Below, piece by piece: positions 10,532 to 35,907 of a DNA stretch of 56,536 nt; positions within the stretch are counted from its first letter, which is position 1; every line of letters begins with the position of its first letter. Below the pieces are notes generated by a model. It saw only the letters and a program-made list of their open reading frames with translations. It ran no database searches and was not told where the DNA came from. Position numbers and translations under genes: made by a program. The stretch comes from a virus (lineage: Duplodnaviria; Caudoviricetes), in the IMG/VR virus record IMGVR_UViG_3300044632_000832, positions 1 to 56,536 of that record; one strand, 5' to 3'.

Positions 10532-11068
10532 ATGGCTTGCACTGCTACGAGTTCGGTAAACGTCGGACTGCGACGTAAATACGACCACGCCTACCTCGAA
10601 CTGCCCGTGGACCCGGAATGGGGCATTCCCGTTCCGAACTGCTGGGTCTACCTCGACACGGTGACCAACTACATCCGCCCGTTCTCCTCGACCGATGAGG
10701 TGACGGACATCACGAACAGCCCCGTAAAGGGCGTCGTTCAGGACTTCGTTCGACCCGGTGTGGATCGCGTGCTGGCCGTCTGGACCTGCGGCGTGTTCCA
10801 GTTCAACATCTCGGCGGCTACTGAAGTCGTTGGCGGCGTCACTGGATTCATTCCGTATCTGGACGGAGCTGCCGTGAGCAACACCAAGTTCGCCCCAGCT
10901 GGCGAAGGTGACACTGCGATCTTGACGGCCATCCAGCATGGTCCGTGCATCTGCCAGTCGCAGTACTCGGATGCTTGCCAAACCGCAGGCGATGTTGCCT
11001 CGGAGAGTCCAACTACCCCACTCGCCATTGCCAACGTGACGAACGCGGTCGGCAAATTCTGCCTCTAG
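10532..11068 (+). CDS. Head decoration/cement protein (7 Cys)
   Basis: Position between scaffold and capsid; AAGGAG RBS; GVFQF motif. Confidence 0.65.
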   Translation: MACTATSSVNVGLRRKYDHAYLELPVDPEWGIPVPNCWVYLDTVTNYIRPFSSTDEVTDITNSPVKGVVQDFVRPGVDRVLAVWTCGVFQFNISAATEVVGGVTGFIPYLDGAAVSNTKFAPAGEGDTAILTAIQHGPCICQSQYSDACQTAGDVASESPTTPLAIANVTNAVGKFCL

Positions 11069-11077
11069 GAGTACAGC

Positions 11078-12457
11078 ATGTCCAAAACGAACATCAACGA
11101 CTTTTTGGTCGAAGGTTACCGGAGTGCTGCTCCGAACGGCACGGTGACCAGTCAAGAGCGTCTTCAGGAAGTTTTCCGCGATGTGGACAACCGTGCGTTG
11201 GACCGCGAACTGGACTTTCAGGAGCTTGACTACAAGCACCTCTTCGAGCGGATCATGCCGAAGCAGGTCTTCGATCTGTTCAACTCCTCTGGTCGCATCC
11301 AGAGCAAGGAGCAGCTGAAGCCCCTGAAGGAATCGGCGGAAGCCGCCATCAAGGCGAGCTACTTCGACCAGTTCCTCGACCGCTGCGTCACCCGTCAGCT
11401 GTTGCAGTTCACCTGCGACATGGCCCCCACGCTGCTGCGTGGTCTGGTCACGCGGGTGGATGCACCCTGCTCCAGCTACAACGACCGCAAGCTCTGCGAG
11501 TTCCCCATGGATCCCCCGCCGGATCTGTGCGGAAAGTCGGAGGAGGATGAGGAGCCAGCACGGTTCTACCAGCTGGGTCGCCAGCGTTGCTGGACGATGC
11601 CGAAGCCTAACTACGTCAGCTTCAGCTTCGCTCTCCATCGCAACTTGGTGTGCGTGGATCCCACGGGTGAAGTTCGTCGACAGATCGAGCAGCGTGTGCG
11701 CTGGTTCGATGTCATCGACGAGAAGAATGCCGCTCGCCTGATGTTCGACATCAAGGGTGCTGGCATGTGTCAGTATCCCTACAGCTACGACGGTACGACC
11801 TACTCGTCTGGCTACAAGGGTGCTTCTGCTGGAGCCCCGTGGGCGAACGTCATCGAGGACGCTGGCCTGAAGCTCAGTGGCTGCTCGGAGGCTCCGCTGT
11901 GTGCGATTGAGCAGGTCTACGAGGACATGCGTGACCCGTACAACTGCTTCCCGCTTGACTGCGGAAACGGTTACCAGGTGATGCTGACCCGCGACTGCCA
12001 GAAGTATCCGTACCTGGATATGATCGCACCGAAGTCGGTGACTCACACGTTGTCTGGTCAGAACTGCGAAGCCGCTCAGGTGACGGATCGCACGGCCCGT
12101 GACGGCTGGACGACTAGCCCGCTGATGAGTCGCTGGGTGTATGACGAGCTGGTGAAGTTCTACAAGAGCGGAGCCTACGTCGACCTGGGTGGAACTACCC
12201 GCACCTACAACGACGCCCAGGCTGCCTACGCCGCGACGAACACCTATCTGGTGTCCAAGTCGATGGCAGAGACGTTCGGCTTCATGGTCGACTTCGATGT
12301 CACGACCCGTGAACTGTCGGGTACGGACACTTGGCAGTACTTCGACCGGGGCGTCACCTGGATGCGTCGGTATGAGCGGAAGGCCAGCTACATGTGGCTT
12401 CGTCCCTGGATGACGCTGCTTGTTCGTGCCTTCCCGACTTTCGATCCTCTGGACTAA
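11078..12457 (+). CDS. Major capsid protein (14 Cys)
   Basis: Size, synteny, strong codon bias, AGGAG RBS, LKES putative maturation site. Confidence 0.8.
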   Translation: MSKTNINDFLVEGYRSAAPNGTVTSQERLQEVFRDVDNRALDRELDFQELDYKHLFERIMPKQVFDLFNSSGRIQSKEQLKPLKESAEAAIKASYFDQFLDRCVTRQLLQFTCDMAPTLLRGLVTRVDAPCSSYNDRKLCEFPMDPPPDLCGKSEEDEEPARFYQLGRQRCWTMPKPNYVSFSFALHRNLVCVDPTGEVRRQIEQRVRWFDVIDEKNAARLMFDIKGAGMCQYPYSYDGTTYSSGYKGASAGAPWANVIEDAGLKLSGCSEAPLCAIEQVYEDMRDPYNCFPLDCGNGYQVMLTRDCQKYPYLDMIAPKSVTHTLSGQNCEAAQVTDRTARDGWTTSPLMSRWVYDELVKFYKSGAYVDLGGTTRTYNDAQAAYAATNTYLVSKSMAETFGFMVDFDVTTRELSGTDTWQYFDRGVTWMRRYERKASYMWLRPWMTLLVRAFPTFDPLD

Positions 12458-12481: not shown

Positions 12482-12958
12482 ATGGAAGAGTTTCAGATTC
12501 GTCGTGGACCCGGTCGTCCGCCAAAGCAGGTTTCGGAATCAGCACCGAAGCCTGCGGCTGACGGGGAGTCCACGGCGACGGTCGTGGGGCAGAAGCCTGC
12601 TCCGCAGCCAGTTGTCCGCAGCGATGGCAATGAGGCGTTGCAGTCCAGGCTTCGTTCGATGGAGCTTCAGCTTCAGGCGATTTCTGGAAGGCGTGAGAGT
12701 CGAGACGAGGTCTTTGATAAGGCACGAGAGATCGTTGACCGAATCAAGGGGGCTCGTCTCAAGTCAGGTGCCAATCAGTGGCGAGTCCATAACTCTCGCT
12801 ACCGAGATGCGGCTGGTGATCCCGTGACGCATGAGTTCTGGTCTGATGCATCGGACCCGGAGTCTGCACGAGCGGACTACAATCGCCGCAATGGCCGTTA
12901 CTGGTCGCCCGATGAGGGTGACGATCCGCTGAAGTTCGAGTTGATCGTGGAGCAGTAA
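12482..12958 (+). CDS. Hypothetical protein with N-terminal AT-hook-like RGPGRPPK
   Basis: Directly after capsid gene; RRGPGRPPK motif. Confidence 0.6.
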   Translation: MEEFQIRRGPGRPPKQVSESAPKPAADGESTATVVGQKPAPQPVVRSDGNEALQSRLRSMELQLQAISGRRESRDEVFDKAREIVDRIKGARLKSGANQWRVHNSRYRDAAGDPVTHEFWSDASDPESARADYNRRNGRYWSPDEGDDPLKFELIVEQ

Positions 12959-15015
12959 TGGCAAACGTCAAGCCGACTAGCAAGAAGTTTTCGCCTCTCG
13001 ACCCTGATGTGAACTCAATCCCGGTTGGAGACTCTCTGCCTCCGGGTAAGTTTTCAGATGGTGCGCAGTTCTTTCACAAGGACAATAGCATCCTTTACGT
13101 CTACGCAGACGGTGGGTGGCAGGCGACAACTGGTGCAGGAGGAGTGGTGGATGAGTTCATCGCTCTCTCCGACACACCTGGCAGCTACGTTGGTTCTGGC
13201 GAACTTTGGGTAACCGTCAAGGCAGATGCCTCTGGCGTTGAGTTTGTAAGCCCCGCCTCGGCTACCTCTCGCCTAGCCGTGATGACGGGTGCAACCGCTG
13301 GTGCGGCTGGGACCAAGGGAATGGTTCCGCCCCCGGCGGCGGGTTTTCAAGGTCGCTTCCTTCGTGGCGATGCATCGTGGCAGAATGTTGTTACCAGCGA
13401 GGTGGAAGTCACCCGTGGCTTCGGACCTCCGACTGGCCTGCCCAGCAGCACGAACGATCTGTATGTGGACCTGAACAGCAGTTCGATCTGGTATTCGACC
13501 GGATCGCTGTGGGAAAAGATATCTGTACCGAACGTCGCAGATGTCTACGCCACCATGCCTGCTGGGTATCCAGCCAATCCTTCTTCGCCAACGCCAGCTG
13601 AGGCACAGGCTTACGCTGCTTCTCTCGGTCTGATTGGCCCGACCATTGTGTCTTATGCGGGTGGTGGTAGCACCACAGACCCAGCATTCGCATGGTTCAT
13701 CGACTCTGTGGGATCTGCGGTTTGCATCCGCGACCTGACAGCACAGAAGGGTGACACGGGTGCCGCAGGTCCACCAGGGCCAGCAGGCGTGGTTTGGAAG
13801 GGCAACTGGTCCTCATCTACCAGCTATGTCGCCAATGACGCCGTTCTCTATCAGGGAACTTCGTGGCGTGCCTTGCAGTCTCACACCAACCAGACTCCTG
13901 TTGCCGGTGCCTACTGGGCTGTGCTTGCCCAGAAGGGTGCGGATGGCGGACTCTCTGATGGAGACAAGGGTGACATATCCGTCACTTCGAGCGGCAGCGT
14001 CTGGACGGTCGATGCGAACACTGTCACCTACTCCAAGATGCAGGATGTCTCCGCAGCATCCCGGTTGCTTGGCCGTGGCTCAACGGGAGCTGGTGACCCG
14101 CAGGAGATCAGCCTTGGCACTGGCCTGACCATGACCGGGACAACGGTCAGCGTCAACGGCACGATACCGGACAACGACTACGGCGACATTCAGGTTACTG
14201 GTGGCGTGTGGAAGGTCGATGATGACGCAGACATTCAGCTCAGGTCTGCGTTGCTTGGTTCGACCAGTGGCGGTGGCGCTGGACTCCACAGCGCACAAGC
14301 TAACCTGCTTGAGGTGCGAAGCGGTGCAGCTCCCAATAAGCTGGCCGTGTACAACGCATATCAGTCGCCAACAAATCACGAGCGAATTCTGATTGGGTGG
14401 TCTGGGAACATAGGCTGCATTGCCACCGAGAAGGGATCTTCTGGCGGTGCGGCTCGTTCCATCTCGATTGCGACTGATGGCACAGAGCGGATCAATGTTG
14501 GTGCCAACGGATTCATTCGATTCAATCAAGCGTACACCTTCCCAAATACGGTTGGTACTTTGGGTCAGGTGCTGGGAGTAGGCACTGGCTCCGTGCTGGA
14601 GTGGTTTACTCCATCGGGTTCACAGCCATCAGTATCGAACCCGAAGATGGTAACCAGCACGCCGCATGGGTTTACAGCCGCGAGCATTGGCTATCCGCTG
14701 TTTGCTGCGACAACTTATGTGGACACTGATCCCGAGCAGTGGCCTACTGGCATCTTCGATGAGTACATCAACTCCACTTCGTTCCGATATGCAACCGAGG
14801 GCTCTTCCCTGGACATTGCATCCAGTCTGTTCGAGGTTGGATACAGCATTGACGCAGGCGGGCGTTTTGTGTTTTGGGACTATTCAGTTCAGATCTATAA
14901 GGCCGAGAAACCCGTCGACTCGGATCCTAGGCTTGGGCCATTGCTGATGGTGAACTACCTGGAGTCTGGCAAGTTCAACTGCACCGTACTCGGATTGGGG
15001 CCAAGCTCATGGTAG
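12958..15015 (+). CDS. Fibre/appendage protein
   Basis: Short collagen GPPGPAG, WKGNWSSSTSY..NDAV motif, DGDKGDI repeat, FLRGD..W motif. Confidence 0.75.
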   Translation: MANVKPTSKKFSPLDPDVNSIPVGDSLPPGKFSDGAQFFHKDNSILYVYADGGWQATTGAGGVVDEFIALSDTPGSYVGSGELWVTVKADASGVEFVSPASATSRLAVMTGATAGAAGTKGMVPPPAAGFQGRFLRGDASWQNVVTSEVEVTRGFGPPTGLPSSTNDLYVDLNSSSIWYSTGSLWEKISVPNVADVYATMPAGYPANPSSPTPAEAQAYAASLGLIGPTIVSYAGGGSTTDPAFAWFIDSVGSAVCIRDLTAQKGDTGAAGPPGPAGVVWKGNWSSSTSYVANDAVLYQGTSWRALQSHTNQTPVAGAYWAVLAQKGADGGLSDGDKGDISVTSSGSVWTVDANTVTYSKMQDVSAASRLLGRGSTGAGDPQEISLGTGLTMTGTTVSVNGTIPDNDYGDIQVTGGVWKVDDDADIQLRSALLGSTSGGGAGLHSAQANLLEVRSGAAPNKLAVYNAYQSPTNHERILIGWSGNIGCIATEKGSSGGAARSISIATDGTERINVGANGFIRFNQAYTFPNTVGTLGQVLGVGTGSVLEWFTPSGSQPSVSNPKMVTSTPHGFTAASIGYPLFAATTYVDTDPEQWPTGIFDEYINSTSFRYATEGSSLDIASSLFEVGYSIDAGGRFVFWDYSVQIYKAEKPVDSDPRLGPLLMVNYLESGKFNCTVLGLGPSSW

Positions 15016-17468
15016 CGAAGATCAAGACCACCAAGGACAATGTGATCTCGGTTGTCGGAACTGGAAACGCAGAAATCGACAACATGCGATTTGCGCTTGC
15101 TGTGTCCGCAGCTAATGCGTTTTATTCCAGCACTGGCAGGCCAGCAACGATCCTAATTGATCGTGAAGTTCACATCATTGGTGAGCATATATTCACCAGC
15201 CCGACTGGCCTCGAATGCACCAAGGGAAGCTGGCTGGTCCGCGACGATTCTACCGCAAAGGTTTCTTACAATACGTCCCAGTCTGCCGCGTTCTCCTATT
15301 CTTCGGCAGCCTATGGTGAGATGACTGACACGGCAGCAGGTGCTGCTGTTATCAGCCTTCCTTACGAATACCAGTTGGCAGCTGGCGATTGGGTTTTGAT
15401 CTACGGGTTCAACCAGATCAGCGACATCACGCCACACTCTACGGGAACGAAGAGCTTCCCCATGGAGCTACAGCGTATCAACCGTAGAGCGTCCACGGGA
15501 GCGTGCAACGGTACTGGGACTCGGTGCGACTATGTCTTTGACGACTTCCTCGACGAGGTCTACCAGACGGTAACCAGTGGTGGCGTCACCAAGGCACCAA
15601 GAGTCGCCGTGCTACCGAACATGATGAGTGGCATTCGGATCAGGAACTTCAACTACCGAATGAAGGATGCTGCCTACAGTGCCAGCACCGCTCCGTCCGT
15701 TTACATGTCGGCTCTGTATTTTGAGCGATGCCATGATATCGAATTGAGCAATTGCTCTTTCGGCGAGTGGCACCCAGGGACAATGGGGTTCAAGTACTGC
15801 GCCAATGTTCGTCGCCATGGCTGTAACTGGTCGTCTGTTGAGAACTTCGAGTACGACTCGGAGACTGGGGTTGTCTACGGAATTCTGGATTCTGTCTGCA
15901 ATGGCATGGATATCCAGAACTGCACGTTCGGTGGAATGAGGCACGCTTACACGACAGGCGGAACGGCGGCAGCTTCAATTCACAGCCCATCAACGTCAGA
16001 TCGCGTTGGCACCGTAAAGAGCGTCCTGATCCAGGGCAACCGCTTTGGGAATAATGGTCGGCTTTCTGGATCCACGCTTTCCGGCATGGCGATGGTCAAC
16101 CCTCACTGCGAGGGAAGGCGGATTGTTATCAGCGACAACCAATTCAATGTGCCTGGAGAGCAGAGCGTCAGGAACATTGGGATCACCGTCAGGTACAGAG
16201 ACGCTGTCATTCGCAACAACACTTTCAACTGCGGGCCAGCGGCTGCTCCGTTGATGATCTACGGAACGAGGGCTACCGTCGCCAACAACACCTTCAACGG
16301 CGGCCTTTACTGCTCTGTGAATTCCCTTAACAGCTTTGTGAACATTGACAAGGTTCGGTTCGCCAACAACACGTTCCGAAACTTCGTGTCACCAGCAATT
16401 CATATCACGACTGGCACCGACCACGAGATCGTCGGCAACACGTTCGACAACTGCGGCTACCAGTTGGTGACGGGATACAAGAAGGCTGCGATTGAGGTTG
16501 CCTCCCTGACGGCTGGTGGAAGCATCCGCATCAAGGATAATTCGATTGCTAAGTACTCGAATGACTTTGCAATCCACACTGGGAGCCTGCTGCCGTCACA
16601 GGTCATCCTCGATGGCAACCTTTGCAGCGGATATGGCGGCTTGTCCTTGGGGCTTGATCGGTCCTTGGCGAACACCGCTGAGATTGAGATGCTGTCCCTT
16701 CCCAGGAACAACGGTTCGATCAAGGCCGTGGTTATCCAGCAGCCGGGCCATGCCTTGACTGCGTCGAATGTTGGAATGCCGATCACTGGAAGCCACGCTG
16801 TTTACAACGATGTGACGGCTGGATTCGGAGTCATTGGCGTGATGGCTGACCGAATCGATTCGGGCCACTACATCTTGTACCTGCCTAACGAGCCGTTCTT
16901 GCTGCCAGCCTCATTCATGGCGACGGGCTATTCGTTCCCGGCATCGGGCCGAGACCTCTACTGGGACCAGTCCCAGCTTAAGTATGTGGCTACCAAGCCC
17001 GCTGACTCGGCCAGCGATGCGGTCCCGGTCCTGCGAGTCCATGCATCGAAGCCAAGCGGCCTGCTGGTGAGCATGATCCAGTTTTCGCCTCCGGCTTCGT
17101 CTGCTCCAGTCACGGAATCAATTGGGCTGGCTGTGTCTGACGAAACAACCAACCTGACGGTGGGGACCGGCAAGCTGACTTTCCGCATGCCGTTTCCCAT
17201 GTTCGTCACAGGCGTGCGCGGTTCAGTCAATACGGCACCGACTGGCTCAACGATCATCGTCGATGTGAATGAAGACGGTGTGACGCTGTTCTCAACGCGA
17301 CTCTCCATTGACGCAGGCGAGAAAAGTAGCACCACGGCGGCTTCACAGGCGGTAATCACCAACGGACTGCTTGCCGAGGACGCAGAGATCACGGTGGACA
17401 TTGATCAGGTGGGAAGCACTGTGCCAGGGAAGGGTCTCAAGCTCTGGCTGCAAGGCATCCGCTTATGA
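15009..17468 (+). CDS. Right-handed beta-helix (pectin-lyase-like) spike/depolymerase
   Basis: Repeated I..NNTF/GNRF/DNQF rungs; C-terminal TFRMPF...IIVDVN...ITVDIDQVGS..PGKGLKLWL domain. Confidence 0.8.
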   Translation: MVAKIKTTKDNVISVVGTGNAEIDNMRFALAVSAANAFYSSTGRPATILIDREVHIIGEHIFTSPTGLECTKGSWLVRDDSTAKVSYNTSQSAAFSYSSAAYGEMTDTAAGAAVISLPYEYQLAAGDWVLIYGFNQISDITPHSTGTKSFPMELQRINRRASTGACNGTGTRCDYVFDDFLDEVYQTVTSGGVTKAPRVAVLPNMMSGIRIRNFNYRMKDAAYSASTAPSVYMSALYFERCHDIELSNCSFGEWHPGTMGFKYCANVRRHGCNWSSVENFEYDSETGVVYGILDSVCNGMDIQNCTFGGMRHAYTTGGTAAASIHSPSTSDRVGTVKSVLIQGNRFGNNGRLSGSTLSGMAMVNPHCEGRRIVISDNQFNVPGEQSVRNIGITVRYRDAVIRNNTFNCGPAAAPLMIYGTRATVANNTFNGGLYCSVNSLNSFVNIDKVRFANNTFRNFVSPAIHITTGTDHEIVGNTFDNCGYQLVTGYKKAAIEVASLTAGGSIRIKDNSIAKYSNDFAIHTGSLLPSQVILDGNLCSGYGGLSLGLDRSLANTAEIEMLSLPRNNGSIKAVVIQQPGHALTASNVGMPITGSHAVYNDVTAGFGVIGVMADRIDSGHYILYLPNEPFLLPASFMATGYSFPASGRDLYWDQSQLKYVATKPADSASDAVPVLRVHASKPSGLLVSMIQFSPPASSAPVTESIGLAVSDETTNLTVGTGKLTFRMPFPMFVTGVRGSVNTAPTGSTIIVDVNEDGVTLFSTRLSIDAGEKSSTTAASQAVITNGLLAEDAEITVDIDQVGSTVPGKGLKLWLQGIRL

Positions 17469-18892
17469 TCATTGGATCCCGTGCTGGCCGTGCCAAGTCG
17501 GGCGTGAACCTTGTGTCCCCGTGGTACTACGCCACGGAGCATGCGTTCTTGGATCGTTTCAAGGTCAGCTCCAACAGCTGGATCTCCACCATCAACTTTG
17601 GCTGGAACAACGGGCCAGCGATCACGGTCGACGCCAATGGATACCCGAACAATATCGACCTCACATTGAACGCCCACAACGCAAGCGTAGTGGTTGGGCT
17701 GTCCAGCCAGTTTCCCAGCGGGACATCGTTCGAGATCACCTGGACAGGTGACTCAGCGGGCGTCACCTCGGACGGCGGGACTGCCGCTGGAAACAAGATC
17801 ACGTTTCAACGAAGCACCTCTCAGTACGCGAATCAGCTCATTCGCATATGGCGCAATGGCATCAGCAACCTACAGCTGCGTCGGGTAGGTGATCCCACGA
17901 CAGGGATATTCACGCCGGAGTGGGTGACGCGAAACAAGCGTTACTCGGTGCTGCGGTTTATGGGCTGGACGAAGACGAATGATGCAAGGGCAGCTTACCC
18001 CGTGCTGTGGTCGAGTCGTGCCTTGACGACGCACCGGACGTACGACACGGCTAACGGCGTGCCTTGGGAAACTTGCATCCAGGCATGCAACGAGACAGGT
18101 AGTGGTGGATGGTTCTGCGTACCGCATGGGGCGGACGACAACTACGTTACCTCGCTCGCAACATTGATCCGCGATACCAGGGTGGGCAACTGGCCTGTCT
18201 ACATCGAGCATAGCAACGAGGTCTGGAACAACATCTTTCCTCAATACGCCTACTGCGATGCCCAAGCTGGCGACTACCTCGACTACCACATTCTTCGGAC
18301 CAAGCAGATCGGAACATTGATGCGAGCGACCGGCCTCGATATCAATCTGGTTCTGGGCCTGTGGTCCGCCAATGCCTACCAAGCAGAGCAGAAGTTGCGT
18401 GATGGCGTAACGCTGGCAGGACACGAGGGCATCGACTGCTTCGCCATTGCCCCTTACTTCGGCAATCAGATCTCCGAGGCACAGAATACGCAGATCCTGT
18501 CTGGTGGCGTGACCACTTGCGCACAGATCTGTAGCGATCACATCGCAGGGAATGTGCGGGACTGGATCATTCGCCACAAGCAGTTGGCAGACGACTGCGG
18601 CAAAAGGCTGGTGGGCTACGAGGGGGGGCAGCATTTGCAGGTCTTCGCCAATGCACCGCTCACAGCGATCTACACCGACACCAACCGCAACACGGTGATG
18701 CACGACCTCTATCAGACGTACCTGGAGCAGTGGGACCAGCTGACGAACGGTGCGTTAATGTGCCTGTTCGAGGATGTGTACCCGTGCCAGGAGAGCGGCA
18801 ACTGGGGCCTTCAGGAATACGCAGGAGAGTCAACCACGACGGCCCACAAGCTGCGTTCGTGGCTGACCTTCCTGACAAATAACAAGCAATAG
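17465..18892 (+). CDS. Putative clan GH-A glycoside hydrolase (TIM barrel)
   Basis: LRFMGW, GVPWE, WFCVPH, VYIEHSNEVWN (acid/base), AIAPYF, YEGGQH (nucleophile). Confidence 0.75.
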   Translation: MIIGSRAGRAKSGVNLVSPWYYATEHAFLDRFKVSSNSWISTINFGWNNGPAITVDANGYPNNIDLTLNAHNASVVVGLSSQFPSGTSFEITWTGDSAGVTSDGGTAAGNKITFQRSTSQYANQLIRIWRNGISNLQLRRVGDPTTGIFTPEWVTRNKRYSVLRFMGWTKTNDARAAYPVLWSSRALTTHRTYDTANGVPWETCIQACNETGSGGWFCVPHGADDNYVTSLATLIRDTRVGNWPVYIEHSNEVWNNIFPQYAYCDAQAGDYLDYHILRTKQIGTLMRATGLDINLVLGLWSANAYQAEQKLRDGVTLAGHEGIDCFAIAPYFGNQISEAQNTQILSGGVTTCAQICSDHIAGNVRDWIIRHKQLADDCGKRLVGYEGGQHLQVFANAPLTAIYTDTNRNTVMHDLYQTYLEQWDQLTNGALMCLFEDVYPCQESGNWGLQEYAGESTTTAHKLRSWLTFLTNNKQ

Positions 18893-18916
18893 TCACTTTA
18901 CACAGGGAGTTGGGGT

Positions 18917-19234
18917 ATGCGTGAACTGATCATTGTTCTTCGTGAATTGCTGTCCAAGTCGAAGGATGGGACTGCCACGTTTCTCGATTGGCTGCGAGCC
19001 CTGGACGCGGTGATTCATCTGGTGATGGATTCGCAGATGGGGTTCGGTCAGTCCATGGACGAGGACGAGGAAGAGGAACTTCGCCACATTGCTGGTGAAC
19101 TCACTGGAGAGCCTACAGGTGGCATGGAGATGGGCATTGCCGGGAGCATCCTGCTGAACCTGCTGCTGAAGTACCTGCTCAATCAGGTTTCCAAGAGGGC
19201 TAATGGGGAGGCCGTGGACGATGAATCCGCATAG
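18917..19234 (+). CDS. Hypothetical protein, C-terminal amphipathic/hydrophobic helix
   Basis: GGGAG RBS; GSILLNLLLKYLL. Confidence 0.6.
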   Translation: MRELIIVLRELLSKSKDGTATFLDWLRALDAVIHLVMDSQMGFGQSMDEDEEEELRHIAGELTGEPTGGMEMGIAGSILLNLLLKYLLNQVSKRANGEAVDDESA

Positions 19235-25478: not shown

Positions 25479-25769
25479 ATGGCAGACTGCGAACCGAATT
25501 GCCCTGACTGTGAAGGTGTCGTCGACTGCGAGCGTGCCAAGCAGTTGCGATGCAAGGTGATGGCCCAGATCGAGGCTTTGCTTTGCGCTCCAAGTGGTCC
25601 GATTGAGATCGAGGGAGTCAAGTATGAGAGTAAGGGTTCAGCCCTGGCTTATCTTCGCGAGTTAATGGATTGGACCTACCTGATCTGTGAAAGGTCCATG
25701 GAGGAGGATGGCCCGATTATTGAGTGGGTTGGCCCCCAGCCGTGCGGCGGTGGAGATTGCTGCCAATGA
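25479..25769 (+). CDS. Head-tail adaptor (gpW-like), 10 Cys in 96 aa
   Basis: IEIEGVKY...YLREL pattern, AAGG RBS, synteny. Confidence 0.65.
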   Translation: MADCEPNCPDCEGVVDCERAKQLRCKVMAQIEALLCAPSGPIEIEGVKYESKGSALAYLRELMDWTYLICERSMEEDGPIIEWVGPQPCGGGDCCQ

Positions 25770-27232: not shown

Positions 27233-27817
27233 ATGGCGTGTGGATTATGCCCTGGATATTTCAGTGTCTGGTACTTGAAGGACGTTGGTGAAGGCAGTCC
27301 CGACTTCCAGTGGATCCAGATCAGCAACATCGATTCTTGGACGCTGGACGCGAACGTACAGGAGGCTACCAAGAAGCGTACCTCCAGCACGAACGGTCTG
27401 GCTGTGAAGTTCTGCGAAGACATCGTGGACTACACCGCATCGGTGACGACCACTGTCTGTGAGACGGACTGGCTGTGGTGCCACATCCTTTCCGATTCTG
27501 GCAATAAGAATCAGATGTCAGACACCCGCGAAGGGTGGTGGTTCTTCGGATGGGGCAAGGACGGCACTTCGCCGGAAGCTCCTGATGGATGGACCACCAT
27601 GGAGATCGCGGCTTGGGAGGTCTGGCGAGCTGGCGGTGCGGAAGCAGGTCCGCATCAGGACAGCGGTGTTTTTGTTTACGGGAAGGTCGTTCCCGGCGGC
27701 ATTGGCGGCGACAACACGGCAACCGACCCAACGACGGCCACGTTTACAATCAACGTGTCCTTTGGGCCGATCCTGCCTGAAGTGAACGCCAGCTGCGATC
27801 TTGTTGCGCCTGAGTAG
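27233..27817 (+). CDS. Major tail tube protein (6 Cys)
   Basis: ISNIDSWTLD...TSSTNG pattern, AGGGAG RBS, synteny. Confidence 0.75.
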   Translation: MACGLCPGYFSVWYLKDVGEGSPDFQWIQISNIDSWTLDANVQEATKKRTSSTNGLAVKFCEDIVDYTASVTTTVCETDWLWCHILSDSGNKNQMSDTREGWWFFGWGKDGTSPEAPDGWTTMEIAAWEVWRAGGAEAGPHQDSGVFVYGKVVPGGIGGDNTATDPTTATFTINVSFGPILPEVNASCDLVAPE

Positions 27818-27838: not shown

Positions 27839-28306
27839 ATGAAACCGACTGGTGTTGACTTTGATGTCGTGATTGATGGTGAGAAGCAGACGTACTACAT
27901 CAAGCCTGATGTGTTCTCTGAGTCCACCATGACGAAGCTGGCCGCTTACGTTAAGGCGAAGCGGTCGGAGACTCGCAGGGAGATGCTCCGTGATATCGCA
28001 GATGCTTCCAAGGGATTGCCCGAGGAGGCCATCAAGGCGATGACACAGGAGGTGATCCGCAACGGGTTGGACAACGCCTCTGTGGACTACGAGACAGCCA
28101 TTCAGGCACTCCAGTCCGCCGATGGCGAGGGTCTGGCTATCGCCCTTGAGATGAATGTCGACGGCATTAGCTCTCGTCATGAAGCTCGCAAGGTGATGTC
28201 TGCGTACCCGAACGTGGCAGACTTGATGGCGAAGGTCGTGCAAGCTGGCATGACTGCCCTGGAAGCTGCGCAGGAGTATGACCCCAAAACCGGCCTGGGA
28301 AACTGA
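27839..28306 (+). CDS. Tail assembly chaperone (G)
   Basis: Between tube and tape measure; ends in slippery G GGA AAC TGA. Confidence 0.75.
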   Translation: MKPTGVDFDVVIDGEKQTYYIKPDVFSESTMTKLAAYVKAKRSETRREMLRDIADASKGLPEEAIKAMTQEVIRNGLDNASVDYETAIQALQSADGEGLAIALEMNVDGISSRHEARKVMSAYPNVADLMAKVVQAGMTALEAAQEYDPKTGLGN

Positions 28307-28536
28307 TCCCGCCCCGTGGTGATGGCGTGAAGTCCATGTCACGGGAGGAGGGAGACGTATCCCTCGCAAGGGAATACCACCTGTCACTGGACCAGATACG
28401 CGGGCTGAACCAGTACGACAAGCGATTGATGATGGGCTGGGTTCCCTTCAATCGAGAGCTTGCCGAAAAAGCTGCGGCTGACCATGTCTCTGGAATGATG
28501 GCATTGGTCAAACGCCACGGGGTCAAGCATGGCTGA
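28297..28536 (+). CDS. -1 frameshift extension of tail chaperone (GT)
   Basis: GGGAAAC at 28297-28303; -1 frame open through ORF 28327-28536. Confidence 0.75.
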   Translation, partial: GKLIPPRGDGVKSMSREEGDVSLAREYHLSLDQIRGLNQYDKRLMMGWVPFNRELAEKAAADHVSGMMALVKRHGVKHG

Positions 28537-31500
28537 AGAATTTGATCTGATCAGTGCGTTCATCTCTGTCTCGATACGCAAGCAGAGTCTTGAACAGGTC
28601 GAATCGCAGATCAAAGGAATAGCCGAAAGGCTGAAGTCTATCAAGGCGTCCGTTGGGTTACGCCTTGTTGGTCGCCAGGATTTTCGCAAGGAGCTTAAGG
28701 CATTCCTTGACAAGCTCCCGAAGGGCAAGGTCAAGGTCACGCCAGTCATCGACGGAAAGAAAGAATTCAATGATGCCTTCAGGAAGCTAAAGAAAGATGC
28801 TGGCGACAAGCCGATCAAGGCCACCGTCAAGATCGAGACTGGCGGTGCTGAGAAGGCGATCAATCAGCTAGTCGGTAAAGCCAAAGTCATTGCTACTGCC
28901 GCACGGCGTGCTGGCGAGGACATCGACAAACTCAATCGAGAGATTGAGCGATGGGGTAGGATTCGCGGCAGGTCTGCTGAAGCCGAGACTCTTCTCGGAA
29001 TTACTGGCAAGCCAAACTTCGGCAGCATGAAGCAGATCGAAGAAGTCAAAGCGCGAATGCGCTACTATGACAGTCTTCGTAGTCAGGCCGAAAGAATTTC
29101 TGAGCTAACTGCTGACATCCAAGACTGGGGAACTGGTCAGGGCAGGGCGCAGAAGGCTCAGGAACTTATCTCTAGGGTCGGAGCAAAGGGCTTCGGTTCC
29201 AGCGGTGACTTCCGTGCGATACTCCGCGAGATGCGTGCAGTCGACAAGGCGATTGCCAGCACCGAGAGGAAGGCTGAGGCGATCTCGTTTGCCAATAGCT
29301 GGGGCAAGGCTACAGGCAATATCGAGGCAGCCAAAAAAGCCATCGCTGATATAGAGTCCAAGGACTTCTTCAGCCAGAGAGATCTTGCTGCGGTTAGGGC
29401 GGTCGCCAGGGAGTACGACAAGATCTCCTCTGACGCCGAGAAGATCGCACAGCTGAATGCAAGGATCTCGGAGTTCGGTGAGAAGCCAGGGCGGCAAAAG
29501 GTAGCACAGGAGCTGATGACTCGCGTCAATGCTCCTGGGTTTGCCGTGGCAACTCAGTCAAACGCGGTGCTTCGAGACATGCGTGCTGCCGACAGGCAGA
29601 TTGCCAGCATGTTTCGCCAGAACGAAGCAGCTGCGTACCTGAACAACTGGCAAAGACTGAGTGGCAAGGTCAAAGAGACACAGCAGCTCTTGGAAATGGT
29701 GAACCAAACGAAGTTGTTCACCAAGGAAGATTTCGCCGCCATCCGCCAGATGACAAAGGAGATTGATCAGGTATCTGCCGCAGCAGCAAGGGCTCAGGCT
29801 GCATTAAACAAGGCCAGCAACCAACTGAAGATCATTTCCAAGCCAGACCCTCGGGCTATGTTCAAGTTTCGCTCTGACTTTGTGCCGATGCAAGACATTC
29901 TTGCAAACACAATGGATCTGGATGCGAAGAGGGCGCAGCAGCAGGCCGATGCGGAGAAGCAGCGACAGGACAATCTTAAGCGAACAGCAGCAAGGGCAGC
30001 GGCAGAGGGCAGGAAAACCGCTAATGAGTTCAGGGCGCAGAGGGCCAAGCGATCTATTGCACTGCGTGGTGCGTTGTTTGAGGCTGGCTTCGTTGCTGGC
30101 CCAGCTGCTGGCATCCTTGGAAACCTTGTCGGCGTCAGAAACCAAACAAGCACTTTCATACAGAACAGCCAGCTTGCCCAGCAGGCAGCGAGTAAGTTCC
30201 GAGTAAGCATCGGTGCGCTTGGCGCAACAGCTGGAGTCGCAGCGAGCGTTGTGACAGCTGCTGTTGGTGGAATCGTTGCTGTCTTTGGGCAAGCGTTTTC
30301 CGTGATAAGCCAATTCAATCAGCAGGCAATCGCTGGTCTAAAGGGCGCACTGAGTGCAGTGATTGGGCCAGCACTTGCTTTGTTCCAGGCAATTCGCGGA
30401 ATCGCAACCTACCTCCCGCTGGTGGCAGCTGGTATCGCGGGCTTCGTTGGCGAGACATTGACGAAGGCGACTGTGGAGTTTGACAAGATCCAGTCGCTGT
30501 TCAAGTTCACGTTCGCAGGTCAGGCGGCGTCTCAGCTCAATCTGGTTCGTCAGGTGAGCGACTCGTTCGGGTTGAGCCTCGATGCGTTGGCGGTTGGCTA
30601 TGGCAAGTTGGCGGCTGCTGCCAAGGACAGTGGCGTAACCCAAGAGGAGATACGCCAGCTATTCATCGGCACCTCGTCCGCTGCGGCAGTATTCAAGCTG
30701 AACCAGGGTGACCTGGATGGCGTGTTCCGCGCCTACCAGCAGATCATCTCCAAGTCGGTTGTCAGCTCTGAAGAGTTGCGGCAGCAGTTGTCTGAGCGGT
30801 TGCCTGCGGCATTCTCACTAGCCGCCAAGTCTCTCGGTAAGTCACAGCAGGATTTGAACGAAGCCTTGGCGAATGGTAGTGTCACGGCTGAGGAGTTTAT
30901 CCCTGCGTTCGGCAGGGCTCTGCGGCAGGCTTACGACCAGAACGCTTCTGGCATTGTCGACACTCTGCCAGCCAAGCTAAGTCGCCTGCAGAATTCGCTG
31001 CTCGATCTCCAGCGATCTGCCGAGGGTACTGATTTCCTTGAGGCGTTTGTTGACCTGAAGCAGGGGCTGATTGATCCGTTCATCAAGGATGGAGCGATCA
31101 AAGGCGCACTGAAGAATGTATTTGTCGAGGCTGGCAAAGCTTTCAGATTCTTCACTGCACAGATTCCTCTGGCAATCGACCTTCTGAAGGATGTTTGGCG
31201 AGCTGTGCGTCCGCTGGTGGAGGCGTTTGCCACGCTACAGTTGGTGTTCAGTGCGCTTGCCATTGCTGCTGCCAAGGAGTTTCTTGATGTACGCAGGAAT
31301 GCGGAAATAGGACTTGGTGACGCGATCCTGAAGGTTAAGGAGTTTTCCGACAACATCAAGTCCGCACTGAACCTCGACCTGTCTGACTTCAAGTCCATCA
31401 TGGGATTTGTCAAAGTAATCATCGAGAATTCGGAACTCGCATTGGCTGCTTTTCTAGAGGCACTCAACGGTGCGATCCGAGTGATTATTACGTTTGCATC

Positions 31501-32236
31501 AACCCTTTATAGCCAGATAATTCCGCTGATGTTCGAGCTTGGCGTGCAGATGGGCAAGGCCATTGGAAATGGGTTGATGATGGCCTTGACCGGAAGAGAT
31601 GACAGGCTTGAGAAGGCATTGAGGGAAAGGGCTTCCATCAACCAACGAATGCAGGGTGACGAACGCTCTCTGCTCCAGGGAAATCTATCGCCCCGCCTGA
31701 CTCAGCAGGAGAGGGGCGAGATGCGATCAAGGCTGCTGGAGTTGAATGCCGAGATTATGAGGATGGAAAAGGCTAGACGCCCAGGCGGGCTGTCTGGCTT
31801 GTTTGCTGAGTCGATTAGCCTTGCTAGCTCCAAGGCATTCGACGAGCTGTCTGGTATCAATCTCGAACCATTCGAGAAGATTGGTGCGCTGTCAAAGAAG
31901 GCCCAGGAGAATCTTGCCGAGGTGCAAAAGGAGCCGAAGCGAGATTTGTCCTTCCTTGAAATTGCACTGACGGAATTGAGGAAGTCGCTTGGCGCTGGTG
32001 CTGCAACCACATCTGATTTTGAATCGCAGTTCTTTGGCTTCGAGGAGTTTCAGCGATTCCTGCAAAGCGGTGAGCAGGTGCGTGTTGCAGAGAACACGCA
32101 AAAGATCTATGAAATAAACCAGCAGCAATTGGATGTGCTAAACAAGATGAACACGAACCAGGCGTCATTAAACAGCCTGCTAAATCTTGAGGGTGCTTAC
32201 ATGCGAGCCCCGTCTACCCTGCGATGGGAGAACTAA
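28529..32236 (+). CDS. Tape measure protein (0 Cys)
   Basis: 1235 aa helical; QIISKSVVSSEELRQQLSERLPAAFSLAAKSLG tape-measure motif; central hydrophobic segments. Confidence 0.92.
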   Translation: MAEEFDLISAFISVSIRKQSLEQVESQIKGIAERLKSIKASVGLRLVGRQDFRKELKAFLDKLPKGKVKVTPVIDGKKEFNDAFRKLKKDAGDKPIKATVKIETGGAEKAINQLVGKAKVIATAARRAGEDIDKLNREIERWGRIRGRSAEAETLLGITGKPNFGSMKQIEEVKARMRYYDSLRSQAERISELTADIQDWGTGQGRAQKAQELISRVGAKGFGSSGDFRAILREMRAVDKAIASTERKAEAISFANSWGKATGNIEAAKKAIADIESKDFFSQRDLAAVRAVAREYDKISSDAEKIAQLNARISEFGEKPGRQKVAQELMTRVNAPGFAVATQSNAVLRDMRAADRQIASMFRQNEAAAYLNNWQRLSGKVKETQQLLEMVNQTKLFTKEDFAAIRQMTKEIDQVSAAAARAQAALNKASNQLKIISKPDPRAMFKFRSDFVPMQDILANTMDLDAKRAQQQADAEKQRQDNLKRTAARAAAEGRKTANEFRAQRAKRSIALRGALFEAGFVAGPAAGILGNLVGVRNQTSTFIQNSQLAQQAASKFRVSIGALGATAGVAASVVTAAVGGIVAVFGQAFSVISQFNQQAIAGLKGALSAVIGPALALFQAIRGIATYLPLVAAGIAGFVGETLTKATVEFDKIQSLFKFTFAGQAASQLNLVRQVSDSFGLSLDALAVGYGKLAAAAKDSGVTQEEIRQLFIGTSSAAAVFKLNQGDLDGVFRAYQQIISKSVVSSEELRQQLSERLPAAFSLAAKSLGKSQQDLNEALANGSVTAEEFIPAFGRALRQAYDQNASGIVDTLPAKLSRLQNSLLDLQRSAEGTDFLEAFVDLKQGLIDPFIKDGAIKGALKNVFVEAGKAFRFFTAQIPLAIDLLKDVWRAVRPLVEAFATLQLVFSALAIAAAKEFLDVRRNAEIGLGDAILKVKEFSDNIKSALNLDLSDFKSIMGFVKVIIENSELALAAFLEALNGAIRVIITFASTLYSQIIPLMFELGVQMGKAIGNGLMMALTGRDDRLEKALRERASINQRMQGDERSLLQGNLSPRLTQQERGEMRSRLLELNAEIMRMEKARRPGGLSGLFAESISLASSKAFDELSGINLEPFEKIGALSKKAQENLAEVQKEPKRDLSFLEIALTELRKSLGAGAATTSDFESQFFGFEEFQRFLQSGEQVRVAENTQKIYEINQQQLDVLNKMNTNQASLNSLLNLEGAYMRAPSTLRWEN

Positions 32237-32237: not shown

Positions 32238-33467
32238 ATGGCTGAGGTAGCTTACGGATTTGTGGTGGATGGGGCTCCGACAGAGCGGTACACCAGTGGC
32301 GGTGGCATGGAAGCAAGCGTCACTTTCTTCGGCCCAGCCTCCAACCGGATGCAGTTCCTTGAGTACATTTTCGGCAGGTGGAACTACGCAAACTGGGTTG
32401 CAGATCCAGGTGGAGATGAACCCACCGCCATGCTTCCAAGGGGCATCTGCTGGTCATCACTTCCGAGGCCATATGTTTCCTTAAGCGAAATTGTACTCGG
32501 CGAATGCTACCTTCCTTCCTATGCGGGAATTTCTCCAGCTGACACTGACGCACATTGTCTATGGCCTGACACATGGGAGGTTTCGGCGGCAGACCCAAAC
32601 TCAAAGCCGGAGTTTGTAGGCTGCGTTGATCCGATCTCTGATGATCCAGAAGAGCGGCCTATGTACAGGCCAATCGACTACAGCTGCAGCTGCTACGTTA
32701 CGGTTCACTACCGGCACAAGCACAACGGCTGCTGGCCCCTGCCGCATGTGCGCAGGTATGGAGCAACCAGCGATGGTGGTGTACCGGACGTTCCCGCTGG
32801 GACTTACATCGATGTAAAGACGAGAACATCTGGCGAAGTGCAGACGATTGAGGGGCAGGGTCTTAAATTCGGCAATCCTGGTGCCGCCGGGCCTTCATCT
32901 ATCCCTGGTGCATCATGGGAAGATCCAACCGCCACGCCAACTACGCTACCTGCTGGAGTTGGCATTGGAACGATAGTGTCCACTACGCAGATGGACATCA
33001 CTTGGTCTGGCGTTCCATTCCCACCATGGGAGGTAATCGACGACCTGAGAGGGCGTGTTAACAAGGCACCTTTTCTTGGCAACCCAATAGAATCAGTCTG
33101 CTTCTTCGGTGCGGAGTTCACGACACAGGGAAGCTTCGGCTGCGTCACCCTTTACAACATCCATTATTCCTTTGTGATCAAGACTTCATCGGTTTTTCTT
33201 GAGTCGTCCCCAACGCCTCTTGATTATGAAAACTCAAAAATGATCGCGAATACGTCGCAAATTGGGATATGGAATCGTCGCGCTTGCATTAGCTCCATCA
33301 AGTATGGGAATTCAATCGTGACAAACTATGTGCCGATCTTTACCAAGAACGGAGACACCACACCATTCCGACTTGACGACGGCCTGTACTCATTCTCTGA
33401 TCTGTTCCGTATGAGGAACGGATCTAACGTGCTTACAAGTACTGCATCGGCTCTGGCCTGCACATAA
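32238..33467 (+). CDS. Tail tip/distal tail protein (11 Cys)
   Basis: Immediately after tape measure; GRVNKAPFLG...VCFFG motif. Confidence 0.65.
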   Translation: MAEVAYGFVVDGAPTERYTSGGGMEASVTFFGPASNRMQFLEYIFGRWNYANWVADPGGDEPTAMLPRGICWSSLPRPYVSLSEIVLGECYLPSYAGISPADTDAHCLWPDTWEVSAADPNSKPEFVGCVDPISDDPEERPMYRPIDYSCSCYVTVHYRHKHNGCWPLPHVRRYGATSDGGVPDVPAGTYIDVKTRTSGEVQTIEGQGLKFGNPGAAGPSSIPGASWEDPTATPTTLPAGVGIGTIVSTTQMDITWSGVPFPPWEVIDDLRGRVNKAPFLGNPIESVCFFGAEFTTQGSFGCVTLYNIHYSFVIKTSSVFLESSPTPLDYENSKMIANTSQIGIWNRRACISSIKYGNSIVTNYVPIFTKNGDTTPFRLDDGLYSFSDLFRMRNGSNVLTSTASALACT

Positions 33468-33477
33468 GAGATCTGCC

Positions 33478-35907
33478 ATGGCAATCATCAAAGGTCGCGG
33501 ATACCTCGGCAGTGCCAACCAATTTGGTGTTGGCCCGGCCATGGGGCAGGAGCTAATCCGCAAGGCGCAGGAGCATCTGTCGACTGGGAACGGGTCAAAG
33601 CTAATTGGCCCGAACATGGAGGCCATTGTTGCTGACATTCAGAACAATGGGTTCTTCTTTGCTGTGCCAACGCAAGTCATTGATGAAGCGGTGCAGGACC
33701 AGTCTTCTGGAGAAGCTGGCTATTTCAAGTACTACGCTTCTAGTGGCAAGGGTGTCCATGTCAGCCTGGGTGTTGTCAATAACACATGGCACCAGATTCA
33801 GTCTGCGCCGAACCCACCGGCAAATACTATCGAGTATGTGATGGACAAGAATACCGTAGGCGATCTTCCAGAGGTCGACCTGTGGAACACGCACAATGGC
33901 ATGTGGCTGTGGGCCAATGTTGCCTACAAGTTCACGCTCGACCCTGAGTCTGGCAGGTTCATCCCAATCGACTTGCCGATGCAGCCAGTTATCACTGCCA
34001 GAATCTATCAACAAGACATTGCCTTTGGGGGCTACGGCACTGCTCAGGTCTACTTTAACGGCGTTCCATTTGGCTCAAAGTTCATTACTGTCTACCACAC
34101 TTGGGTGAAATTTGGAGAAGACCTTAAGGCAGGTTCGGACGTATTTGTCCAATGGTTCCCTGAGCGAGGTGCCTACACGGCAGGGCAGTGGGTGGTTGTT
34201 GGTGCAAATGCGGAGACACAGACGGATGTGATCATCGCGGAGATCACTGCCAGTCCTGGTGTCGATAACTGCGGATCGGTAAGCAGGAGCCCCGTCTGCC
34301 TCTATCCTGCACGGAGGGTCGCCAACAATCCAGCGGCAGCCACGCAGTGCGACGACACACCGTGGACTGGCATCGAAGAAGAGATCTATCTGGTCGATAT
34401 CACCGGATGCGATCCGGTAACGACACTCAAGAAGGGTGATCGATACCTTGCGAAGAGGCTGGGGATTATCACTCTAGGTGGGCAAGAGCGAGAGCTTTAC
34501 GCCATCCGTGGTGACAAGTCCTCCACCTCGGTGAAGGTCATCGAGATTGACTATGACGAAGAGGGTACGGAGAACTGCCAGACCGTCCAGACCAATGATG
34601 GCTGTGTCTACGGGGCGATCATCTCCAACAACAGCCTTGGCGACCAATGCTCCGGCCAGTGGTCTGCTGGCGATCTTGTCTGGGCAATCAACGTAGCAGC
34701 CTGCAATCAGCCATCGTCTGTCAAGCGTGGCGACCGATTCGTTGGGCTTGGTCTTGGCAGCCTCACGGTGGGAGGCGAGACGCGGGAACTCTACGCCTTC
34801 CGGCATGTGGACGGCGGCGACCAGACCAAGATCGTCACTGTGCTTCCCTATGCCAGTCAGCCCCTAGCCTGCCAGACCATCGATCCGGCGGCTCCGGCCT
34901 GCATCCTCAATGGCAGGATCTCCAGTGCGCTGGCCTTCGGGGATCCTGACGAATTCGGCAACGAGTGCAACGTCCAGAACTGGACCAACGAGGATGAGAT
35001 CTGGGTCATCAATCTCGCCACCTGCGGGGACAAGGTGCAGATCCCATTCGGCGAGCGGTTCATCGGCCAGTACATCATGGACTATGAGCATCAGGAAGCC
35101 ACCAAGCCGCTCTATGCGATCTACTACCGTCCTTCATCCGCAGGCTCTAGTGCGATTGTCGCGGTGAATGTGATTGGCCCCGAGAGCTGCCATCCGATCA
35201 CACCCAACAACAGCTGCGTCTACCCTGGCAATCTGATCTTCAATGGTGACGATGAACCGGATGTCTGCCAGACCGACAACTTTGTTGAGGGGGCTGACAT
35301 CTGGATCGTAGATGTCGCCAGCTGCAACGACCCTGGATCCATCCCCAACGGAGAGCGGTTTGTCGGACACAGGCTGGGATACCATACCCACGCTGGTGAG
35401 ACGCTGCCCCTGTATGGTATCAAGCATGTGCCTGCTAACATTGGCGTGTCTGGTGCGTACTTTGATACTGGCTTCTTTGCTTCACCTGGACAGTTCGTGG
35501 ATGTCTTGCCAGGATTTGAAACCATCGAGCTTTTCGGAGCGTCGGGGCTGTCAATAGATGCCAGTTTCATTCGCAATACATCAGGAACGGCGATAAGGTA
35601 TGCGGTTAATGCTGAGATCTTTTTTGATTTAGGCAGCGCAGTTGTAGGCGTTACTGAGTGCCTTTTCGCCAGCGGACAAGTCGGGCTAGGAAACGGATCC
35701 GGTTCAACTGTGTTTACGGACTACAGGTTCAATGACCACCTCGACACAAATCTTTGCGGAGGGTGGGGAGATCCAATACTCTGGTCTCATCGTCATGCCT
35801 GCCTATGCAGTATCATCCAGCTACAGCCTAACGAATTGGTGAGCGGGTTCATGAATGGAAGCGGAGGAAGTGTCCGCATTCGCGGCACGTTGACTAGGCT
35901 CGCATAA
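33478..35907 (+). CDS. Tail-tip/fibre protein with four ~100-aa 4-Cys repeats (20 Cys)
   Basis: Repeats ending G(D/E)R(F/Y)...LY(A/G); last large gene of tail module. Confidence 0.75.
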   Translation: MAIIKGRGYLGSANQFGVGPAMGQELIRKAQEHLSTGNGSKLIGPNMEAIVADIQNNGFFFAVPTQVIDEAVQDQSSGEAGYFKYYASSGKGVHVSLGVVNNTWHQIQSAPNPPANTIEYVMDKNTVGDLPEVDLWNTHNGMWLWANVAYKFTLDPESGRFIPIDLPMQPVITARIYQQDIAFGGYGTAQVYFNGVPFGSKFITVYHTWVKFGEDLKAGSDVFVQWFPERGAYTAGQWVVVGANAETQTDVIIAEITASPGVDNCGSVSRSPVCLYPARRVANNPAAATQCDDTPWTGIEEEIYLVDITGCDPVTTLKKGDRYLAKRLGIITLGGQERELYAIRGDKSSTSVKVIEIDYDEEGTENCQTVQTNDGCVYGAIISNNSLGDQCSGQWSAGDLVWAINVAACNQPSSVKRGDRFVGLGLGSLTVGGETRELYAFRHVDGGDQTKIVTVLPYASQPLACQTIDPAAPACILNGRISSALAFGDPDEFGNECNVQNWTNEDEIWVINLATCGDKVQIPFGERFIGQYIMDYEHQEATKPLYAIYYRPSSAGSSAIVAVNVIGPESCHPITPNNSCVYPGNLIFNGDDEPDVCQTDNFVEGADIWIVDVASCNDPGSIPNGERFVGHRLGYHTHAGETLPLYGIKHVPANIGVSGAYFDTGFFASPGQFVDVLPGFETIELFGASGLSIDASFIRNTSGTAIRYAVNAEIFFDLGSAVVGVTECLFASGQVGLGNGSGSTVFTDYRFNDHLDTNLCGGWGDPILWSHRHACLCSIIQLQPNELVSGFMNGSGGSVRIRGTLTRLA

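Follow-up and report, generated by a model that had tools for sequence, protein, structure and literature searches.

Conserved and pairwise-coupled cysteines in the capsid, neck and tail proteins of an uncultured phage suggest a disulfide-stabilized virion

The virus record IMGVR_UViG_3300044632_000832 (Duplodnaviria; Caudoviricetes) is a metagenomic sequence of an uncultured tailed phage, and its whole length of 56,536 bp is the window analyzed here. Eight shell, neck, tube, hub and tip proteins encoded in this window are rich in cysteine, with 81 Cys in 2479 residues when pooled (3.27%), and in the capsid family the Cys are gained and lost in coupled pairs. Judged from the sequences, the conserved and pair-coupled Cys appear to be functional and most likely are disulfide-forming. 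The best explanation, and a probable one, is a disulfide-stabilized virion of the kind described for phages Milano and Jabs, in this case in an uncultured temperate siphophage lineage; the phage is likely a further case of these known particles. An earlier note on the same DNA had proposed a cross-linked particle, which the sequence data make plausible, and had implied that such a particle would be novel. That implication does not hold, since whole-virion disulfide networks have already been published for Milano and Jabs.

The Cys-rich proteins, all encoded on the + strand, are in map order a 178-residue protein (10532..11068; 7 Cys, 3.9%), the 459-residue major capsid protein (11078..12457; 14 Cys), a 96-residue head-tail joining candidate named from its position (25479..25769; 10 Cys, 10.4%, clustered at both ends), a 195-residue neck protein candidate (25766..26353; 7 Cys), a 139-residue tail terminator candidate, likewise placed by position (26799..27218; 6 Cys including the N-terminal MSCCC), the 194-residue major tail tube protein (27233..27817; 6 Cys), a 409-residue distal tail/hub candidate, again by position (32238..33467; 11 Cys) and an 809-residue tail tip protein (33478..35907; 20 Cys). 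No Cys at all is found in the 1235-residue tape measure protein (28529..32236, +), which is recognized by Pfam TMP_3 (PF20155; E = 7.6e-24, 84.9 bits vs a cutoff of 41), in the tail assembly chaperone G (155 residues) and the downstream T open reading frame (ORF; 69 residues), both assigned by position (27839..28536, +), in a 150-residue neck protein candidate (26350..26802, +), or in a 158-residue protein of unassigned role (12482..12958, +). The tube gene lies directly upstream of the chaperone and tape measure genes. The eight Cys-rich proteins stand above the non-structural ORFs of the same phage (132/6421, 2.06%; odds ratio 1.6, Fisher p = 0.001), and the Cys-free set, 0/1767, stands below them (p = 1.5e-14); the whole proteome is 1.66% Cys. 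Every Cys count given in the earlier note was reproduced from the translations, and the terminal motifs that it listed (MAC.., MADCEPNCPDC.., MSCCC.., MACGLC.., ..GDCCQ, ..FCL and ..LACT) are all present. Its descriptions of the first ~100 residues of the capsid protein and of the scaffold part of the protease as Cys-free are also accurate: the first capsid Cys is residue 103, and the 319-residue prohead protease/scaffold candidate (9561..10520, +; named from its position between the portal and capsid genes) has Cys at 52 and 109 only, leaving a Cys-free C-terminal part of ~210 residues. The names "decoration" (the 178-residue protein), "adaptor" (96 residues), "closure" (195 residues) and "terminator" (139 residues) used in that note are positional guesses. 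Searches of ten head, neck and tube proteins against PHROGs and Pfam gave no usable family; the sole family matches among the ten are one of the tube protein to a functionally unassigned PHROG (E = 0.002) and one of chaperone G to KinB_sensor that falls below the cutoff.

The capsid protein has no sequence-level match in Pfam, PHROGs or, by profile search, the PDB, and it is identified through its predicted structure. An AlphaFold2 (AF2) model computed on a 52-sequence alignment has a mean predicted local distance difference test score (pLDDT) of 82.5 and in a Foldseek search of the PDB gives 290 matches at E<=0.001 (best 1.1e-8, probability 1.00), and among the PDB matches listed all are HK97-fold capsid or encapsulin shell proteins; this run supersedes an earlier one with 14 sequences (pLDDT 56.5, Foldseek E >= 0.02). 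In its modeled structure the 459-residue protein is an HK97-fold major capsid protein. All 14 Cys fall within residues 103-330, and the helical N-terminal ~100 residues have none. The lack of positional conservation among homologs that the earlier note had named as the contrary outcome is clearly not what is seen: nine of the 14 capsid Cys are invariant vs 81 of the 445 other residues (p = 2.5e-4, 14-sequence alignment), five of the six tube Cys are likewise invariant, and in both alignments Cys equals Trp in its degree of conservation. Over 52 full-length capsid homologs the Cys content runs from 0/502 to 23/484. Since members of the family go down to no Cys at all, the fold itself does not need them, and this fits a role in accessory stabilization. 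On the family tree the clades with few Cys (0-9) branch from within Cys-rich ones, and whole sets of Cys have been gained or lost together on more than one occasion.

The most informative finding is the manner in which the capsid Cys come and go. Counted over the 52 homologs as both present / one alone / neither, the pairs are 131-192 (44 / 0 / 8), 113-295 (42 / 1 / 9), 269-330 (35 / 2 / 15), 275-307 (19 / 4 / 29) and, in other family members, 296-395 (9 / 0 / 43); positions 140, 151 and 171 are correlated as a group of three. There is one homolog with exactly two Cys, and these are 131 and 192; another has 113 and 295 with 131 and 192 absent. The two pairs thus are independent of each other and do not make up one four-Cys site. 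A single Zn(Cys)4 site at 113/131/192/295 was considered and is ruled out by the same occurrence of the two pairs apart in different members. Because related sequences share states, the changes were counted as phylogenetically independent contrasts on a tree built with all Cys masked. For the five pairs a change at one position goes with a change in the same direction at the other in 0.67-1.00 of the contrasts and never in the opposite direction, as compared to a median of 0.08 over all 120 position pairs; there are 3-10 contrasts per pair and only 275-307 could reach p < 0.05 alone, so that the strength is in the consistent pattern and not in any single test. By AF2 secondary structure, 275 and 307 lie in two A-domain helices (H272-282 and H306-316), 269 and 330 also fall within the A-domain, and the paired strands of the E-loop hairpin carry 140 and 171, one on each, placements that in the model are compatible with intrachain bonds. 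The coupled pairs would then be disulfides, and 140-171 would bridge both strands of the hairpin. Capsid Cys 103, 151, 231 and 290 have no coupled partner, and the invariant Cys 151 is in the loop between the E-loop strands.

A similar degree of conservation is found in the tail tube. All 19 sequences share C3, C6, C61, C76 and C83, and the sixth, C-terminal Cys is present wherever the C-terminus is available, shifted by a few residues; the statistic for the five invariant Cys (5/6 vs 31/188 other residues, p = 9e-4) was computed on 18 rows, leaving out the homolog P0074. The latter, from a contig sourced from the National Center for Biotechnology Information (NCBI), matches the first ~95 residues and then diverges completely, and it looks frameshifted. 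Protein-language-model features from Atlas resemble the "Major tail protein" and Phage_tail_2 clusters (0.94-0.96), no Pfam family is found for the tube at E<=0.01, and the PF08813 profile is not matched. We infer that the six tube Cys form three bonds.

Among the neck proteins, the 195-residue candidate keeps 7/7 Cys both in the 49%-identical homolog of contig L025 and in that of L028; with the same odd number, seven, in each of the three proteins compared, one or more of the conserved Cys must be outside any intrachain bond. The 96-residue protein shares seven Cys columns with its L025 and G001 homologs and has CC at its C-terminus, and Atlas gives it only a weak gpW-like lead (0.83-0.84). 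The 139-residue terminator candidate has one Cys that is invariant in 5/5 relatives, the others being kept in close relatives only. The Cys-free state is retained as well, e.g. the aligned region of the 150-residue protein has no Cys in 6/6 relatives (the one Cys of the L025 homolog is in an upstream ORF extension), and the homolog of the 158-residue protein in contig G002 is 0/150, the G001 entry for this protein being excluded because it came from the wrong strand. The 178-residue protein has a G001 homolog with 13/187 Cys, several of which align, including the N-terminal Cys and a C-x-C motif.

At the far end of the tail, 16 of the 20 Cys of the tip protein are held in four repeats of ~100 residues (residues ~250-655), each with four invariant Cys in the motif C-x8/9-C-x14-21-C-x17-19-C. 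The repeats are only 20-35% identical to each other, and four of their eight invariant columns are Cys. All 16 repeat Cys are invariant in 12/12 homologs at 69-99% identity, and a 27%-identical protein carries three such modules; the tip protein has no Pfam or PHROG match. Each repeat may hold two bonds. The hub candidate has a G001 homolog with 22/413 Cys, in which a few positions align, the C-terminal Cys being one of these.

The capsid family is small, with 15 proteins found by a word-seeded search and, in 1.84 billion representatives, 46 at E<=0.001. A tblastn search of 50,697 phage records with the capsid and portal proteins gave no match, a search of the genomes of 185,579 species with the capsid profile detected no prophage relative, and the tube and capsid profiles gave only chance matches to PDB sequences (E >= 0.24). 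The capsid proteins of two long viral contigs, G001 and G002, are 40% and 37% identical to that of the window, and both contigs also encode homologs of the protease/scaffold candidate. Their Cys contents (G001 and G002, respectively) are 23/518 and 21/472 in the capsid, 7/150 and 6/141 in the terminator candidates, 8/231 and 10/254 in the tubes, and 0/128 and 0/140 in the homologs of the 150-residue protein; the G001 tape measure has 1/1023, a homolog of the 96-residue protein has 16/146, and relatives of the G/T chaperone region carry 0-4 Cys. The alternation of Cys-rich and Cys-free proteins thus recurs in two distant relatives and from their sequences would be a lineage-wide trait. The modules themselves are mosaic, as shown by contig L007/L025, where the capsid is 95% identical to that of the window and the tube 54% (the 150-residue protein is 36%); in L028 a 100%-identical 96-residue protein adjoins a 64%-identical tube. 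The Cys positions persist despite this mosaicism.

How much of the pattern is peculiar to this phage can be judged from lambda, HK97, SPP1 and L5, whose annotated structural genes were translated for comparison. The tape measures of these four phages have no Cys in 853, 1089, 1032 and 837 residues, respectively, and their scaffolds and most of their chaperones have no Cys or almost none. Depletion is therefore the normal part of the contrast, and the lack of Cys in the tape measure, chaperones and scaffold-like regions of this phage is generic and no special adaptation. What is unusual is the enrichment relative to other phages, together with the Cys conservation. The capsid protein has 3.05% Cys vs 0-1 Cys (0-0.31%) in the capsid proteins of the four (that of HK97 has one Cys in 385 residues), the tube 3.1% vs 0-1.7% and the 178-residue protein 3.9% vs 0% in the counterparts, and the structural modules of the model phages have overall 0.34-0.82%. 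The earlier note had seen in the distribution a partition of outer versus ejected proteins, having left out a block of eight fiber, beta-helix and adhesin-like genes recognized by Pfam and PHROG (about 12 kb, 12958..24958, +; 41/3997, 1.03% Cys) and the portal (7992-9503, +; 5/503, 1.0%). Since both of these are Cys-poor, the split is not one of outer versus ejected proteins, and the disulfide reported between two ejection proteins of the pre-ejectosome of cyanophage A4 shows that ejected proteins are not Cys-free as a rule. The further step of that note, from the partition to selection, stands in part: conservation and pairing do point to Cys being under selection, but the partition is a weak argument for it, with Cys-free tape measures and scaffolds being normal, the fibers Cys-poor and the non-structural proteins at about 2%.

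In the favored explanation of a disulfide-stabilized virion, the capsid, neck, tube, hub and tip proteins would be folded and assembled in the cytoplasm with their thiols reduced. On leaving the reducing cell at lysis neighboring Cys would oxidize to disulfides, and these would lock the folds and probably some of the subunit interfaces, both steps being proposed by analogy to Jabs and Milano. No thiol oxidoreductase of the thioredoxin, Dsb or Erv type was recognized by Pfam in the 50 of 64 ORFs scanned, and oxidation would consequently be spontaneous or host-dependent. Links between chains are hinted at by the odd Cys counts (seven in the 195-residue protein, where the number is conserved, and seven in the 178-residue protein of this phage), by the clusters at chain termini, and by the unpartnered capsid Cys 103, 151, 231 and 290, with the invariant 151 in the tip region of the E-loop. 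A more far-reaching form of the proposal is that sets of disulfide pairs have been gained and lost en bloc several times in one HK97-fold family, that in the Cys-rich lineage of this phage the bonds span subunits to give a capsid-neck-tube-hub covalent network with oxidative maturation at lysis, and that a 108-residue DUF1360 membrane protein (Pfam E = 3.6e-7) and the 72-residue protein starting MGCGCQGG that precedes it (together 35921-36462, +) might assist; as a whole this seems unlikely.

Several observations weigh against a disulfide-stabilized particle. Relative to the non-structural proteins of the same phage the enrichment is modest (3.27% vs 2.06%), and the lineage may simply tolerate Cys; the fiber block, although as exposed as any part of the virion, and the portal do not share in the enrichment. 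The total number of Cys over the 52 capsid homologs is even in 32 and odd in 20, i.e. without a clear even bias, and the contrasts per capsid pair are few. Covariation would look the same for intrachain and interchain pairs, and the same for disulfides and paired metal ligands. No loss of a Cys from the tip repeats is seen among the homologs sampled, which is compatible with one Zn(Cys)4 site per repeat. There is no sequence relationship to Milano, to the other phage records or to the solved structures searched, and an anoxic habitat would preclude spontaneous oxidation.

Of the other explanations, the closest is that the bonds are intrachain only and staple the fold of each subunit as in secreted proteins, with no covalent network between subunits; it is a restricted form of the favored explanation and at odds with the cross-linked particle of the earlier note. 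The coupled capsid pairs in elements of the same domain (275/307, 269/330 and 140/171), the four Cys in each autonomous tip module of ~100 residues and the usually even count, six, of the tube family all agree with this. It does not account for the odd seven Cys of the 195-residue protein in all three sequences compared, nor for the capsid Cys without coupled partners, one of them (151) between the E-loop strands; the Cys clustered at chain termini are also against it, such clusters forming interchain links in Milano, and both fully mapped precedents, Milano and Jabs, are described as mixing intrachain and interchain bonds. Confinement of the bonds to single chains is on this evidence possible but rather doubtful. 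Binding of Zn or Fe-S by many of the Cys is improbable as a general explanation, the candidates for it being the 96-residue protein, the tip repeats and the hub. The 96-residue protein has 10 Cys with an N-terminal C-x3-C-x2-C motif, but neither the L025 nor the G001 homolog retains that spacing, just as the N-terminal C-x2-C of the tube becomes C-x-C in distant relatives. In the tip, where 13 homologs show no loss of single Cys or of pairs, a Cys4 site fits as well as two disulfides, and high Cys contents are also seen in the lambda tail-tip proteins L (3.45%) and K (3.02%); lambda gpL carries an Fe-S cluster. The capsid Cys, however, are 9-60 residues apart without CxxC knuckles and are lost as independent pairs and not in fours, and no structural protein has a metal-binding Pfam domain.

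Least probable, and indeed very improbable, is that no special chemistry is involved, i.e. that the lineage or its host tolerates Cys (e.g. in a low-oxygen habitat), that the thiols are free and buried, and that the partition reflects a generic Cys-poverty of helical proteins. The 2.06% Cys of the non-structural proteins and the absence of Cys from tape measures and scaffolds in four unrelated phages speak in its favor, as does the dispersion of Cys among proteins (chi2/df 3.1), which is not above that of Lys (3.7) or Glu (3.2), and the Cys-free capsid family members show a fold without need for Cys. Neutral tolerance does not, however, predict Cys conservation at the level of Trp, coupled gain and loss with zero opposite changes, four Cys among the eight invariant columns of the tip repeats, or a fiber block that stays at 1.03% in the same virion.

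Covalent reinforcement of a capsid of this fold is familiar from HK97, where the E-loop makes an inter-subunit crosslink and carries the crosslinking Lys, and Lys-Asn isopeptide bonds produce the chainmail. The phage of the window has the same capsid fold, reinforcement would likewise follow assembly and an invariant Cys is in the E-loop region; it differs in that thiol oxidation is proposed in place of the Lys-Asn isopeptide.

The closest known systems are disulfide-bonded virions. The Agrobacterium myophage Milano (Commun Biol 2023, PMC10491603) is reported to have 1.4% Cys in its proteome and 2.4% in its structural proteins, as compared to 0.9% for T4; its capsid protein is described as having both intrachain and interchain bonds, and stability is lost with dithiothreitol (DTT). 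Milano thus resembles the present phage in a Cys-enriched structural proteome (the values of 1.66% overall and 3.27% in the eight proteins being both higher than those reported), in an HK97-fold capsid, in Cys clusters near termini and in Cys conserved in relatives, with capsid disulfides and terminal links shown in the case of Milano; it is unlike the present phage in its contractile tail and collar and in bonds seen by cryo-electron microscopy, the latter phage being known from sequence alone. For the Mycobacterium abscessus siphophage Jabs (bioRxiv 10.64898/2026.07.24.740622) the account gives about 1,700 mapped bonds in a particle with two capsid proteins, located within and between capsomers, between terminator and tube, from tube ring to tube ring, and between receptor-binding proteins and Dit. 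The Jabs authors propose that the bonds form during or after lysis, and describe their spread and formation as still open (10.64898/2026.07.24.740622). Jabs is like the present phage in being a siphophage, and the components reported as disulfide-bonded in it are the Cys-rich set found here; it is unlike it in its two capsid proteins and in having its interchain bonds mapped.

More restricted cases are also on record. In the tube family PF08813, gp39 (Protein Sci 2026, PMC13576161) is described as having inter-ring disulfides, with 14% of the members carrying the Cys. This too is a tube with conserved Cys, and the partial carriage of Cys parallels the Cys-rich and Cys-poor clades of the capsid family here, although gp39 is reported with two tube Cys as opposed to six and the present tube has no PF08813 match. 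The HK97 chainmail is brought up in the discussion of that paper as well. In cyanophage Pam3 (PNAS 2023, PMC9942802) baseplate-fiber disulfides were confirmed by mass spectrometry and DTT; Cys-rich regions in tail-end proteins are shared with the present phage, as a cyanobacterial host possibly is, but the bonds described for Pam3 are confined to the baseplate wedge and fibers, whereas here the fibers are Cys-poor and the capsid and tube Cys-rich. A whole-virion network in Bacteroides phage PD491P1 is mentioned by citation (Cai 2026) in PMC13576161.

Disulfide reinforcement of tailed-phage particles has been shown structurally only recently (Milano 2023, Jabs 2026), and the phage analyzed here adds a candidate, identified by sequence, from an uncultured lineage without a solved relative. 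The current picture of phage assembly is unchanged by the finding. Coupled gain and loss of Cys pairs provides a signature by which such particles may be recognized in sequence data, and the natural occurrence of both Cys-rich and Cys-free members in one capsid family offers a comparison set for what the bonds contribute.

The remaining features of the window are those of a phage that is probably temperate, since it encodes both a short 187-residue protein of the Phage_integrase family (44311-44874, -) and an HTH_3 repressor-like protein (45770-46219, -). The large terminase gene (6553-7995, +) is preceded by one for a 534-residue Laminin_G_3 (concanavalin-like lectin) protein (4615-6219, +) with a match to a PHROG annotated "virion structural protein". 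The unusually large fiber block sits between the capsid and neck genes and not after the tail tip; its domains include CBM_5_12, DUF5907, Beta_helix and Big_9/Cadherin by Pfam and tail fiber by PHROG. A cyanobacterial host is a weak lead from sequence similarities: the best full-length cultured-phage matches of a GP88-family protein (53476-54261, -) are to Synechococcus phages (37-41% identity, 97-100% query coverage), and the widest-coverage match listed for the helicase (37622-39151, +) is to Synechococcus phage S-H1 at 27% identity. The large terminase matches are scattered over many hosts and are mostly to actinophages. DUF1360, which the earlier note had put in connection with the Cys trait, is essentially uncharacterized in the literature searched; the genes for the MGCGCQGG and DUF1360 proteins, which in the window follow that of the tail tip, are also adjacent to each other in the distant relative G001 (24270-25026).

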